Shown: one piece after another, positions 12,413 through 15,136 of the stretch
Layout of the letters: each line of letters starts with the position of its first letter
Numbering within the stretch: position 1 is the first letter of the stretch
NCBI GenBank assembly: GCA_964606285.1
Contig: CAZSFP010000002.1
Coordinates: 43,890-107,889 of the forward strand
DNA from: an uncultured Candidatus Saccharibacteria bacterium
GTDB taxonomy: Bacteria; Patescibacteriota; Minisyncoccia; Phycocordibacterales; UBA9973
Direction: 5' to 3'
DNA: 64,000 nucleotides
The notes under the pieces: generated by a model
What the model was told of the DNA's origin: nothing
What the model saw: the letters and a program-made list of their open reading frames with translations, nothing else
Databases searched by the model: none
Program-made: the position numbers and the translations under genes

Positions 12413-15136
12413 ATGGAACTGTCTCCAAATTCGCAATTCAAAACTCCAGAAGAAGAAATCAAATTTCTTCGCGAACAGGTTACTCGTCATGAAGATGCAC
12501 TTCGTGAAGCAACCGGCTCCGCTAACCGGGAAAAAATAACCGAAGATGTTGTGAAGGAATATGCAAAGACACCGGTAGAAAAAGTCTTGCCTGTCGAACG
12601 AATCACCCCCGAAGCATCGCATGATGCGATCGTTCTCGCGCTTAAGCCTGAAACGCATGACAAGCAGATAGAAGAACTGCTCGGTGTGCTTCTCGATCAA
12701 GGGATCAAGAACGCATTGTCACTTCTCGAGAAAATGAACAATCCGCATCTCGATGATGATTTTCATCGCTTTCTCGTCCAGTATATTCATAGTGTCGGGC
12801 CCATACCGGGGGATACCGAAGGTGGACCGCTCTGGAAACCGCTTCGCATGACTTTGTTTGAAATCGCGATTCCAGAAAATGAAAATAAGGAACAGAAAAG
12901 TACCAAAGAATTTTTGGGTGCAATGGAACAGTTTCTCGCAGGTATGCAATCGATCGGCACTGACAATAAAAATGCCGGACGGGAATATTTCGTCATCGAA
13001 CTCGCCAAGGCATCTGGATCTACATCGGTGGTCATTTATGTTGCAGTTCCAAATGAAAAGATCGATCTTTTTGAAAAACAAATTCTCTCGTTTTATCATG
13101 GAACAAAAGTCCGTGCAGTGACGGATGATTACAATATATTCATCGACGGATCAGTTGCCGCCGCGATGACCGCGAAACTTTCCCGAGAACCGATTTATCC
13201 GATCAAAACGTATGACCAGATGGAACAAGATCCGATGAACACACTTTTGAACGTTTTTTCAAAGCTTGGTAAAGACGGGGAAGGTGCGGCGATGCAGATT
13301 GTTGTTTCGCCGGTTGGAGAGAAAGAAGACAAGAAGTTCTCTGTGATTCTCGAATCACTCCGCAAAGGTAAATCACTCAAAGAAGCGATGCTGCCATACG
13401 CCGGTTTTGACAAACAGTTGATCGATATCGGTAAAGGATTTTTCTCTTCCAAAAAAGAATCAGATGAAAAGAAAACGGATGATGGTGCTATTGCAAAATT
13501 GACGGAAAAACTCAAATCATCAACCTTACACACATCGATCAAGATCGTCGCGTCTGCGGGTACGTCTGTGCGAGCAGAACAAATTCTTTCTGAAGTCGCA
13601 TCATCCTTCAATCAGTTCAATGATCCGACCGGCAATCAGCTCATCTTTGAAAAGGTTCCAGAGAAAAAAATAGCGTCGGTGCTTCATGATTTCTCATATC
13701 GTCTATACGATGATGAAAAATCTCTCGCACTCAATTTCCGTGAACTTGCGTCAGTGTTTCATTTTCCGATGGGGCTCGTGAGTAATCCACTGCTTCGTCA
13801 ATCAACAGCCGCGTCTGCACCGGCACCGCTCGATACTGCTGCCGATGGTATTTTGCTTGGCACCAATCTCCACCGTGCAGTCAAGACAGAGGTTCGCATG
13901 GGACGCGAAGACCGCATGCGACACTTCTACGTTATCGGTCAGACAGGTACTGGTAAAACCAATATGCTCAAGGTCATGGCGGCACAAGACATCGCCAATG
14001 GCGACGGTTGTTGTTTTATCGACCCACACGGAACTGATGTCCAAGACCTTCTTTCGTATGTACCAAAGGAACGTATTGATGATGTGATTTATTTTGATCC
14101 TGCATATACGGCACGGCCGATGGGACTCAACATGCTTGAATTTGATCCACGATTTCCGGAACAAAAAACCATGGTTATCGATACGCTTATGACAATGTTT
14201 GATCAGTTATTCAACTTGAAGGCGAGTGGTGCCGGTGGACCGCTCTTTGAACAATATTTCAAAAACAGCACGCTTCTTGTAATGGAACATCCTGAAAGTG
14301 GAGCAACACTTCTTGAAGTTGTTCGTGTTATGTCTGACAAGGCGTTTCGTGATATGAAACTTTCACATTGCAAAAATCCAATTATTACAAATTTTTGGAA
14401 ATCCGCTGAAGCAACGACAGGGGATCAGGGACTCCAGAACTTTGTGCCGTACATCACATCCAAGTTCGACCCCCTCATTTCAAATGAATTTATGCGTCCT
14501 ATCGTACTCCAGGAGAAGTCTGTTCTCAATATGCGCGATATCATGGACAACAAAAAGATTTTGCTCGTAAATCTATCCAAGGGCCGCCTTGGTGACATCA
14601 ATGCGAACCTGATCGGTATGATTCTTGTCATGAAATTCCAAATGGCGGCGCTTTCTCGCGTTGATTCATATGGTCAGAAATTGCAGGATTTCTACCTCTA
14701 TATCGACGAATTCCAAAACGTGACTACACCAGCTATTTCTTCTATTCTTTCTGAAGCCCGCAAATACCGATTGTCGCTCAATATTGCCCACCAATACATC
14801 GGTCAACTACCAGAAGACATCAAGGGTGCCGTATTCGGTAACGTCGGCTCAATGGCGATTTTCCGTATCAGTCCAGAAGATGCAAAATTCATGGAAGCGA
14901 AATTCGCACCGACATTTTCTGCTGCCGATATTTCCAAAATAGAAAACTACAATGCGTACGTCAGCATGCTTGTCCGTGGTACACCGGTCAAACCGTTCAA
15001 TATCGCCGTGCCGCCACCACCAAAAGGAAACAAAGATATGGTCCAGAACTTGAAAGAATTGTCATATCTCACGTATGGTCGCGATCGAGCAGAAGTCGAA
15101 ACTGAAGTTTTTGCAAAGTTTGAAAGAGCACAATAA
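12413..15136 (+). CDS. TraD/VirD4-like (type IV secretion coupling-protein family) ATPase with a roughly 440-aa N-terminal extension
   Basis: The C-terminal 460 aa contain Walker A GQTGTGKT, FIDPHG, LLVNLSKGRLG, YIDEFQN and SEARKYRLSLNIAHQY. This region is paralogous to ORF 50326..52305. The N-terminal half has no recognisable domain. Confidence 0.7.
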   Translation: MELSPNSQFKTPEEEIKFLREQVTRHEDALREATGSANREKITEDVVKEYAKTPVEKVLPVERITPEASHDAIVLALKPETHDKQIEELLGVLLDQGIKNALSLLEKMNNPHLDDDFHRFLVQYIHSVGPIPGDTEGGPLWKPLRMTLFEIAIPENENKEQKSTKEFLGAMEQFLAGMQSIGTDNKNAGREYFVIELAKASGSTSVVIYVAVPNEKIDLFEKQILSFYHGTKVRAVTDDYNIFIDGSVAAAMTAKLSREPIYPIKTYDQMEQDPMNTLLNVFSKLGKDGEGAAMQIVVSPVGEKEDKKFSVILESLRKGKSLKEAMLPYAGFDKQLIDIGKGFFSSKKESDEKKTDDGAIAKLTEKLKSSTLHTSIKIVASAGTSVRAEQILSEVASSFNQFNDPTGNQLIFEKVPEKKIASVLHDFSYRLYDDEKSLALNFRELASVFHFPMGLVSNPLLRQSTAASAPAPLDTAADGILLGTNLHRAVKTEVRMGREDRMRHFYVIGQTGTGKTNMLKVMAAQDIANGDGCCFIDPHGTDVQDLLSYVPKERIDDVIYFDPAYTARPMGLNMLEFDPRFPEQKTMVIDTLMTMFDQLFNLKASGAGGPLFEQYFKNSTLLVMEHPESGATLLEVVRVMSDKAFRDMKLSHCKNPIITNFWKSAEATTGDQGLQNFVPYITSKFDPLISNEFMRPIVLQEKSVLNMRDIMDNKKILLVNLSKGRLGDINANLIGMILVMKFQMAALSRVDSYGQKLQDFYLYIDEFQNVTTPAISSILSEARKYRLSLNIAHQYIGQLPEDIKGAVFGNVGSMAIFRISPEDAKFMEAKFAPTFSAADISKIENYNAYVSMLVRGTPVKPFNIAVPPPPKGNKDMVQNLKELSYLTYGRDRAEVETEVFAKFERAQ

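Follow-up and report, generated by a model that had tools for sequence, protein, structure and literature searches.

Gene content of the locus

The window, as the whole 64,000-nucleotide stretch analyzed is called here, contains at 12413..15136 on the forward strand a gene that starts with ATG and is predicted to encode a soluble protein of 907 amino acids, in which a DUF8128 domain precedes a coupling-type ATPase of the VirD4/VirB4 superfamily. The conserved upstream neighbor is map (methionine aminopeptidase; 10778..11539, forward strand), found in 62 of 72 relatives, and the conserved downstream neighbor is ndk (nucleoside diphosphate kinase; 15205..15786, forward strand), found in 59 of 69. 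The housekeeping gene order adk–map–ATPase gene–ndk is conserved.

Two small genes on the reverse strand lie between map and the ATPase gene. The first encodes an acidic, helical protein of 49 amino acids with a pI of 4.6 (12184..12333) and the second a near-orphan, fast-evolving protein of 175 amino acids (11655..12182). They are translationally coupled, with 1 nt between the TAA stop codon and the next ATG, and an intergenic region of 79 bp separates them from the divergent ATPase gene. The first-pass annotation had recognized this coupled, divergent pair, with its end placed one nucleotide too far, at 12334. A terminator-like hairpin with a 20-bp stem (11538..11581, forward strand) is located just 3′ of the map stop codon. 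The palindrome A6-TCGACTCATC-T-GATGAGTCGA-T8 at 11609..11643 was read directly, as its loop of fewer than 3 nt kept it from being reported by the hairpin scanner; it is likely a bidirectional terminator closing the 175-aa gene.

A paralog of 659 amino acids is encoded at 50326..52305 on the forward strand. It has the same ATPase domain, no DUF8128 and no transmembrane segment, and it ends in a P/Q/S-rich tail of about 230 residues. Residues 487–899 of the 907-aa protein align collinearly with residues 14–423 of the paralog (40% identity, E = 2e-99), and pairwise alignment found no counterpart of residues 1–486 in it, in agreement with the earlier description of both parts.

The ATPase domain

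The P-loop ATPase domain, collinear with the paralog, covers aa ~487–870 (13871..15022). Read in translation, it carries Walker A, GQTGTGKT, at aa 509–516 (13937..13960), FIDPHG at aa 535–540, Walker B, FYLYIDEF, at aa 760–767 (14690..14713) and, at aa 780–795 (14750..14797), SEARKYRLSLNIAHQY, the conserved R-K...Q motif of VirD4/VirB4-type ATPases, all on the forward strand. GQTGTGKT, FIDPHG and SEARKYRLSLNIAHQY had already been picked out in the first pass. In an alignment of 52 sequences, G509, Q510, T511, G512, G514 and K515 of Walker A are invariant, and D765 and E766 of Walker B are kept in 90% or more. Both Walker motifs and the R-K...Q motif are invariant or near-invariant throughout, as in the P-loop NBD of type IV coupling proteins (T4CPs), a group of motors that pass DNA or protein substrates to type IV secretion machines. 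Judged by these residues, the motor is a catalytically intact P-loop domain.

The likeness to T4CPs (VirD4, TrwB, TraD, DotL) may extend to an all-helical insertion at aa 583–712 (14159..14548, forward strand), assigned by DSSP of the predicted model, which appears to sit where coupling proteins have their all-alpha domain. TrwB aligned with the 907-aa protein over 363 of 420 residues, in a correspondence that is not residue-level. The best sequence-model matches of the ATPase half were TrwB_AAD_bind, TraG-D_C, SXT_TraD and CD1115 rather than VirB4 models. Pfam TrwB_AAD_bind scored 22.4 bits (cut-off 20.5), covering only aa 500–544; TraG-D_C, whose match spans aa 760–801 and covers SEARKYRLSLNIAHQY, scored 20.6 bits, under its cut-off of 22; and the NCBIfam TraD and CD1115 scores were far under their cut-offs. 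At the sequence level the motor scores as a T4CP. Homologs have PF10412, PF02534 and PF12696 as precomputed Pfam annotations. Searching the PDB by sequence, whether the query was the single protein or the profile of 52 sequences, gave P-loop matches to TrwB and DotL only and was uninformative on the N-domain. Models, motifs and the TrwB alignment bear out the original assignment of the C-terminal half to the TraD/VirD4 superfamily.

Unlike T4CPs, the 907-aa protein has no N-terminal transmembrane anchor, and the DUF8128 domain of about 450 residues is found there instead. No transmembrane segment was detected anywhere in the protein: the maximum 19-residue Kyte–Doolittle mean is 1.48 and lies inside the ATPase domain, with none N-terminal. 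A further difference from T4CPs is that the gene belongs to the chromosomal core and has neither relaxase nor T4SS genes in its vicinity.

The N-terminal half and the DUF8128 family

By homology, the N-terminal half (aa ~1–455) belongs to Pfam PF26449 (DUF8128). The first 440 residues had been described as having no recognizable motif, which is correct by eye; aa 1–470 also gave no match in NCBIfam or in the Pfam set searched, which excluded PF26449, and PADLOC returned no informative family for the N-domain. Searched alone, the N-domain has 140 matches at 36–51% identity, and precomputed PF26449.1 is present on nearly all of those listed, so that in current databases the description no longer holds. 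The N-terminal half is 37–66% identical to proteins with precomputed PF26449, a family whose name was confirmed as DUF8128.

At least 1,383 homologs were found at E ≤ 1e-10; they are 906–925 aa long, 56–66% identical and all annotated with PF26449 plus T4CP Pfam families. At least 590 species genomes, from Patescibacteria of the Paceibacteria/Nomurabacteria type, contain a relative of the ATPase, and the N-domain profile search gave 1,924 representative matches. Going by these annotations, the DUF8128–ATPase fusion is the usual build of a catalogued and very large family, and the novel fused domain proposed in the first pass is DUF8128, itself without a described function. The family has already been named by NCBI. 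To our knowledge, Pfam gives DUF8128 no function. A literature search found DUF8128 mentioned nowhere within the searched library and nothing pairing 'Candidate Phyla Radiation' with DUF87. In four of the first five relatives the gene was in two ORFs; gene fission or recoding was rejected as an explanation, as the splits differ in position, come with locally garbled translation or N runs, and are assembly errors.

Residues 1–130 (12413..12802, forward strand) form an all-helical region with a conserved NPHxDDDFHRFLVQY motif, in which H112, D116, F117, R119 and Q123 are invariant by conservation analysis of the 52 sequences. Matches of the N-domain profile begin at about position 137 and one subfamily is without the helical region, which by this distribution was added on in the patescibacterial clade.

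The alpha/beta core of DUF8128 follows at aa ~137–452 (12821..13768, forward strand), with a conserved FHFP motif at its end. The AF2 model of the full-length protein has a pLDDT of 82. In comparison of predicted folds, the only match of the N-domain was the N-terminal domain (NTD) of TrwK/VirB4, which suggests that DUF8128 has the fold of the VirB4 docking domain; no source searched states this. An hhalign comparison of DUF8128 with three Bacillus VirB4 NTDs was negative (probability 0.1%, from a shallow profile). With PF26449 homology and a predicted VirB4-NTD-like fold, the HMM and structure checks recommended for residues 1–440 do not leave a novel domain.

The divergent gene pair

The GC content of the pair is 0.33, whereas neighboring genes have 0.44–0.47 and the window as a whole 0.418. 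This ranks the pair among the lowest 2.6% of segments of its size and supports the earlier remark on its clearly lower GC. A close relative retains both small ORFs (dN/dS below 1) and their arrangement beside the ATPase gene, and owing to this conservation they are regarded as genes and not chance ORFs. The 49-aa protein is 94% identical in the close relative; homolog and family searches with it gave nothing beyond one relative. For the 175-aa gene, dN/dS is 0.35, against 0.035 and 0.075 for its neighbors, and the protein is evolving about 10 times faster than the ATPase. Among 5.8 billion proteins its homologs were itself and only one other, 57% identical, and it matched no Pfam, NCBIfam or PADLOC family.

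The pair is missing from all 80 related loci, and in other lineages the same intergenic slot is occupied by genes unrelated to it. Low GC and absence from relatives indicate that the pair was probably acquired, as had been suggested; the further suggestion, that it encodes partners of the ATPase, did not survive the neighborhood comparison. On that reading, a VirD4-like ATPase with a newly gained, novel domain would be partnered by the divergent cassette. Adjacency, the shared 79-bp intergenic region and the arrangement kept in one close relative speak for it. It is contradicted by the absence of the pair from 80 of 80 loci, and the family-wide occurrence of DUF8128, the near-orphan status, low GC and own terminators of the pair, the unrelated occupants of the slot and the rapid evolution of the 175-aa protein also argue against it, which makes a partnership highly improbable. 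The pair is an unrelated, lineage-specific insertion in a variable intergenic slot and not part of the ATPase system.

Genomic slot and inheritance

In the window and in the loci of five relatives, the neighbors of the ATPase gene are housekeeping genes only, with no linkage to a relaxase or mating pore. The window ORFs scanned included no T4SS or pilus gene, at odds with the pilus-rich setting envisaged in the first pass, and no T4SS, relaxase or pilus gene is near the ATPase gene in the relatives' loci. The gene is under strong purifying selection, with a dN/dS of 0.035 over the N-terminal 85 codons.

Plasmid-borne and phage-borne relatives within the family, and the low-GC island adjoining the gene, might point to the remnant of an integrated conjugative or mobilizable element. 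Such an origin is very hard to reconcile with the GC content of the gene (0.445, typical of the genome), the identical housekeeping flanks across dozens of species, the lack of any integrase, relaxase or repeats nearby and the purifying selection. In Paceibacteria-type Patescibacteria the ATPase gene belongs to the chromosomal core and is inherited vertically; it is no part of a mobile element.

Comparison with VirB4 and HerA-type ATPases

In build, the 907-aa protein resembles VirB4/TrwK of R388 and the monoderm VirB4 proteins (AAA_10, TcpF/ConE type): it is soluble and two-domain, with a predicted VirB4-type N-domain followed by the ATPase. This architecture, the solubility and the N-domain match to TrwK/VirB4 only would also be compatible with the protein being the lineage's own VirB4, its principal T4SS ATPase, which sequence models would have mistaken for a coupling protein. 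Against this, no VirB4 model gave a significant match and T4CP models score better. CagE_TrbE_VirB and AAA_10 were unmatched, as was every Pfam VirB4 family at E ≤ 0.1; VirB4_plasma reached E = 0.011 over the P-loop only, and the TrbE model matches the paralog only (E = 0.031). Unlike virB4, the gene is unlinked to VirB3, VirB6 and VirB8, with none of these gene types adjoining it in the window or in the relatives' loci. A monophyletic VirB4 with T4SS neighbors is encoded separately in Patescibacteria, at about one per genome, besides about two VirD4-type homologs per genome (5,713 in 2,918 genomes) that are seldom near virB4 (PMC12102498).

Distant homologs on Bacillus plasmids also bear on this question. 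Two proteins annotated as 'DUF87 domain-containing protein' (WP_003349917.1 of pBM69 and WP_144625398.1 of B. subtilis NRS6116_2) align over aa ~190–890 with 23–25% identity. The plasmid homologs are of similar length (833–913 aa) and have no transmembrane segment, and the DUF8128 core was recovered with a profile E of 2.7e-13. They differ in that they lie on plasmids, where they open a Tcp-type conjugation module, and in having no helical N-terminus of about 130 aa; the one B. subtilis NRS6116_2 sequence examined has an acidic C-terminal tail. In three Bacillus plasmids the homolog heads the module DUF87–replication-relaxation protein–TcpC/D/E–AAA_10 VirB4, where it stands in the position of the coupling protein, with VirB4 as a gene of its own. 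Distant plasmid homologs adjoin a putative relaxase. The coexistence of a DUF8128–ATPase homolog with a genuine AAA_10 VirB4 sets the family apart from VirB4, and with the points above it makes a VirB4 identity improbable.

HerA/FtsK-type translocases and the defense ATPases DptH and MADS8 differ in their N-domain, which in the 907-aa protein is helical plus alpha/beta and predicted to be VirB4-NTD-like, not a HAS-barrel. No nuclease (NurA/Sir2/DUF) or defense partner adjoins the ATPase gene, and HerA sequence-model matches are confined to short stretches, either the P-loop or aa 765–821. CedD and CedB, archaeal DNA-import ATPases, show weak NCBIfam similarity over the P-loop only, far under the curated cut-offs.

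Putative function

The reading we favor, at a probability of roughly 55%, is that the protein is a soluble coupling-type ATPase of the VirD4/VirB4 (FtsK–HerA) superfamily that docks via its VirB4-NTD-like domain. It would form an ATP-driven ring and, as it has no membrane anchor, would be recruited to a membrane machine through that domain. In R388, the VirB4 NTD (residues 15–400) mediates VirB4–VirB4 dimerization and binds VirB3 and the tails of VirB8 (PMC9259494). Given these contacts, the protein may act as a second, substrate-feeding or energizing ATPase of the patescibacterial T4SS, with the T4SS genes elsewhere in the genome. In the sole patescibacterium studied by Tn-seq, a saccharibacterium, a T4CP homolog, which may or may not carry DUF8128, was reported to be non-essential, and the T4SS genes essential (PMC12102498). 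The housekeeping neighbors, the lack of nearby T4SS genes, the negative hhalign comparison and this non-essential homolog were counted against the docking model.

Alternatively, the protein could be an exapted housekeeping translocase that pumps DNA or other nucleic acid, for example in chromosome segregation or resolution, or in import feeding nucleotide salvage. This would account for its constant position alongside adk, map, ndk and beta-CASP nuclease genes, and it is consistent with class-wide vertical inheritance at 56–66% identity in conserved housekeeping synteny and with the lack of relaxase or T4SS neighbors. Adk and Ndk act in nucleotide salvage, and the clusters of some relatives add CYTH, HIT or histidine-phosphatase genes. 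The similarity to CedD and CedB points the same way, and exaptation of patescibacterial t4cp genes 'cannot be ruled out' according to PMC12102498. The linkage may nevertheless be historical, as adk–map is the tail of the ribosomal-protein/secY operon, and the Ced matches are limited to the P-loop. In addition, no membrane or DNA-binding module was identified in the 907-aa protein, and among the gene contexts of distant homologs only conjugation modules were informative. On balance, exaptation seems unlikely, if still worth considering.

With regard to the first-pass annotation, our result is for the most part a correction: what was called a 'novel domain' is a catalogued one, and the 'partner cassette' is there incidentally. 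The role of the approximately two orphan VirD4-type genes per Patescibacteria genome is an acknowledged open point (PMC12102498), and in the sole genetically tractable member the T4SS has been described without a recognizable coupling protein (PMC10633639). One paralog type is soluble, has a predicted VirB4-like docking domain and occupies a fixed housekeeping slot. The favored coupling-type reading offers a testable idea, namely that an anchorless motor is recruited by NTD–NTD or NTD–VirB3/VirB8 contacts. More speculatively, and in our view doubtfully, the DUF8128 ATPases may be a third, unrecognized branch of the VirB4/VirD4 ATPases, a Paceibacteria core gene family combining a VirB4-type docking domain with a coupling-protein-like motor and having a role beyond conjugation. 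If so, they would supply the missing 'coupling' ATPase of the patescibacterial T4SS, which is essential for growth, or else work as nucleic-acid translocases with a link to nucleotide salvage through the adk/ndk neighborhood.

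The ATPase gene and its paralog

The ATPase gene (12413..15136, + strand) opens with ATG and encodes 907 aa. Its translation contains an intact Walker A motif, GQTGTGKT (aa 509-516), followed by FIDPHG (aa 535-540), the Walker B segment FYLYIDEF (aa 760-767) and SEARKYRLSLNIAHQY (aa 780-795). Because the catalytic motifs are all invariant across the family, the product is most likely an active ATPase. By BLASTP, aa 487-899 align with aa 14-423 of the 659-aa paralog (50326..52305, + strand) at 40% identity over 418 residues (E 2e-99), and the paralog has no counterpart of aa 1-486. 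Translation and BLASTP thereby confirmed the first-pass annotation of the reading frame, its motifs and a collinear paralog that lacks the N-terminal half. Unlike canonical VirD4, TrwB and TraD, which possess a transmembrane segment, neither the ATPase nor the paralog has one (maximum KD19 1.48 and 1.27, respectively). The paralog ends in a P/Q/S-rich, probably disordered tail of about 230 aa; the gene directly after it encodes a 460-aa protein that combines a PKD domain with two lamin-tail-domain stretches (both genes within 50326-53699).

Pfam matches of the C-terminal half were weak (DUF87, TrwB_AAD_bind and TraG-D_C), and its NCBIfam matches to TraD (SXT/TOL) and CD1115 VirD4-like families were below threshold; VirB4 NCBIfam models reached E 0.011 at best. 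Sequence searches of the PDB, whether the query was the single protein or a profile of 52 sequences, recovered nothing beyond the TrwB and DotL P-loops. At the level of sequence, the motor leans towards the coupling-protein side. Comparison of the C-terminal half gave 28.5 for the VirB4 C-terminal domain of T. pseudethanolicus (4ag5), 26.1 for TrwB, 26.0 for both DptH and HerA, 22.9 for DotL and 21.2 for Cag-beta. The motor fold is that of the VirB4/VirD4/HerA clade and does not assign a position within it. The original call of a VirD4-like ATPase was right.

The N-terminal half: family and predicted fold

A search with aa 1-470 returned 140 proteins of 36-51% identity; among those listed, nearly all have the precomputed Pfam family PF26449 (DUF8128). 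The Pfam scan of this half was empty because the scanned copy lacks the PF26449 model; two homologues with precomputed PF26449 were likewise blank in it. The full-length query gave at least 1,383 matches at E<=1e-10, and those listed are 906-925 aa long, 56-66% identical and carry PF26449 together with T4CP families. NCBI names the homologues 'type IV secretion system DNA-binding domain-containing protein' or 'TraM recognition domain-containing protein', and already contains the exact ATPase protein. A profile of the N-domain only found 1,924 representatives (50%-identity clusters) among 1.84 billion proteins, including one DUF8128 subfamily without the first ~135 helical residues. At least 590 confirmed relatives of the ATPase were found in GTDB species genomes. 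The ATPase is a new member of a known, catalogued family; Pfam assigns DUF8128 no function, and no mention of DUF8128 was found in the literature searched. What had been described as a novel fused domain is DUF8128, coupled to T4CP families in a family of at least 1,383 matches; the claim of novelty falls under the refutation that the first pass itself had set.

The AlphaFold model of aa 1-470 (pLDDT 81) comprises a helical region (aa 12-127) and an alpha/beta core (aa ~146-452). Foldseek was independently in agreement: its 13 best matches are all chains of TrwK, with E values from 8e-6 to 1.6e-3, and one of these chains has 457 residues. The match output gives no residue ranges; since the query lacks a P-loop domain, the predicted fold must be matching the VirB4 N-terminal domain, which spans residues 15-400 (PMC9259494). 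Profile-profile comparison of DUF8128 with three Bacillus VirB4 N-domains gave no sequence signal, so the relationship rests on predicted structure. Structural and HMM analysis of this half, proposed at first pass, led to a known family, to which a predicted VirB4 N-domain fold is newly added here.

Homologues on plasmids and phages

A tblastn search against plasmids identified 'DUF87 domain-containing proteins' of 833-913 aa on Bacillus plasmids that align to ATPase aa ~190-890. The DUF8128 core is present in these homologues (N-only profile E 2.7e-13), and no transmembrane segment was found in them. Three different Bacillus plasmids share one conjugation module, which the DUF8128 ATPase gene heads. 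After it come a 'replication-relaxation family protein', TcpC-, TcpD- and TcpE-type conjugal transfer proteins, and a second, distinct ATPase of ~850 aa whose AAA_10 (monoderm VirB4) domain is complete (E 8e-85). The plasmid DUF8128 protein is in the coupling-protein position, beside a genuine VirB4.

Among phages, phrog_5156 (PHROG; 824 positions, function not assigned) matches ATPase aa 146-421 (E 2e-21) and thus has the distal part of the N-domain too. Some Bacillus and Geobacillus phage proteins (e.g. Bacillus phage G gp156) have the distal DUF8128 part (aa ~361-455), with the alignment continuing through the ATPase; SPO1-like phages share the ATPase part only.

Genomic setting

The window consists of housekeeping DNA from a bacterium with a small genome; the local order is secY, adk, map, small pair, ATPase gene, ndk, DUF2238 membrane protein, beta-CASP nuclease, rplT, rpmI, infC and tmRNA, and FtsH, LigA, SecA, GatA and DnaE further along. 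No T4SS or type IV pilus genes were found among the window ORFs scanned. The homologues belong to MAGs of Nomurabacteria, Paceibacteria (Minisyncoccia) and other Patescibacteria. Gene-by-gene inspection of five relatives showed the order adk-map-[ATPase gene]-ndk-(DUF2238)-beta-CASP nuclease, usually with the ribosomal-protein/secY operon upstream. Among 80 species genomes, 72 loci were testable for map, which sits upstream and in the same orientation in 62 (no more than 600 nt away in 44); of the 69 loci testable for ndk, 59 have it downstream, 54 of them at a distance of up to 1.5 kb. From this synteny, the ATPase gene is a vertically inherited, fixed core gene of Paceibacteria. No relaxase, VirB4, VirB3, VirB6 or VirB8 genes were seen beside it in relatives.

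In the loci of five relatives (L001, L002, L006, L007 and L008) the ATPase gene is called as two ORFs in four and truncated in the fifth. Gene fission or recoding was rejected, as the breaks fall at differing positions; the broken calls are assembly errors, arising from frameshifts, from runs of N or from a garbled stretch that contains double stops.

Divergent from and upstream of the ATPase gene lie the 49-aa acidic ORF (12184..12333, - strand) and the 175-aa ORF (11655..12182, - strand), with 1 nt between the stop of the former and the ATG of the latter. The pair has a GC of 0.33, compared with 0.44-0.47 in map, the ATPase gene and ndk, which places it within the lowest 2.6% of same-size windows. 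Tight coupling, divergence and lower GC stood as first described; the end coordinate had been off by one (12333). The 175-aa protein had two matches in 5.8 billion proteins, itself and one 57%-identical protein. The latter belongs to L005, a relative with the same arrangement, in which the ATPase N-terminus is 89% and the 49-aa protein 94% identical. Against this locus, the only close relative available (11655-12182, - strand, versus L005 487-1026), dN/dS was 0.35 for the 175-aa gene (dN 0.30), 0.075 for the 49-aa gene and 0.035 for the ATPase N-terminus. The near-orphan evolves about 10 times faster than the other two; the 175-aa ORF is a genuine gene that evolves fast.

Neither small protein was found in 80 related loci (0/80). 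The map-to-ATPase gap (11540-12412, and its equivalent in loci L015-L085) is widened to 600-2,300 nt in at least 18 of 62 relatives. The widened gaps hold ORFs on either strand, mostly of lower GC than the locus; none is related to the small pair, and most show no relation to one another. On its map side the insertion is bracketed by a strong hairpin, which follows map, and by a palindrome flanked by A6 and T8. The pair is a lineage-specific insert in a slot of variable content; the idea of acquired partner genes for the ATPase fails on this distribution, near-orphan status and slot variability, and the suggested survey of neighbourhoods across related genomes showed no co-conservation, the outcome named beforehand as refuting it.

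Elsewhere in the window, five more low-GC islands (~0.33 or below; 5255-6107, 21156-21946, 38933-40570, 43578-45082 and 58356-59132) may be further lineage-specific insertions. A large serine recombinase (504 aa, 61422-62936, - strand) overlaps a tRNA 3' end (61361-61433, + strand) by 12 nt, and 61361-62936 may mark an integrated-element edge. Within 33670-39005, a 738-aa ORF (- strand) has only a weak DUF11 repeat match, and a 794-aa ORF (36621-39005) has no Pfam match whatsoever.

Proposed role

The adk/ndk/nuclease neighbourhood hints at exaptation of the ATPase to a housekeeping nucleic-acid translocase, a possibility left open by previous work (PMC12102498); we consider this main alternative unlikely. 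The reading we prefer, with a probability of roughly 0.55, is that the ATPase is recruited to a patescibacterial T4SS via its VirB4-like domain, as it lacks a membrane anchor of its own. The protein would form an ATP-driven ring, as its relatives do, and dock on the membrane machine with either a VirB4 N-domain as its pairing partner or VirB3 or VirB8-type tails as its ligands. In the R388 machine, the VirB4 N-terminal domain forms the whole VirB4central-VirB4outside dimer interface, and its surface is where VirB3 and the tails of VirB8 bind (PMC9259494). The ATPase would then be the second, substrate-feeding ATPase of a T4SS encoded elsewhere. Recruitment of this kind fits the 5,713 VirD4-type homologues in 2,918 patescibacterial genomes, only 148 of them near virB4 (PMC12102498). 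The VirB4 N-domain fold predicted for DUF8128 would give a coupling-type motor a VirB4-like architecture.
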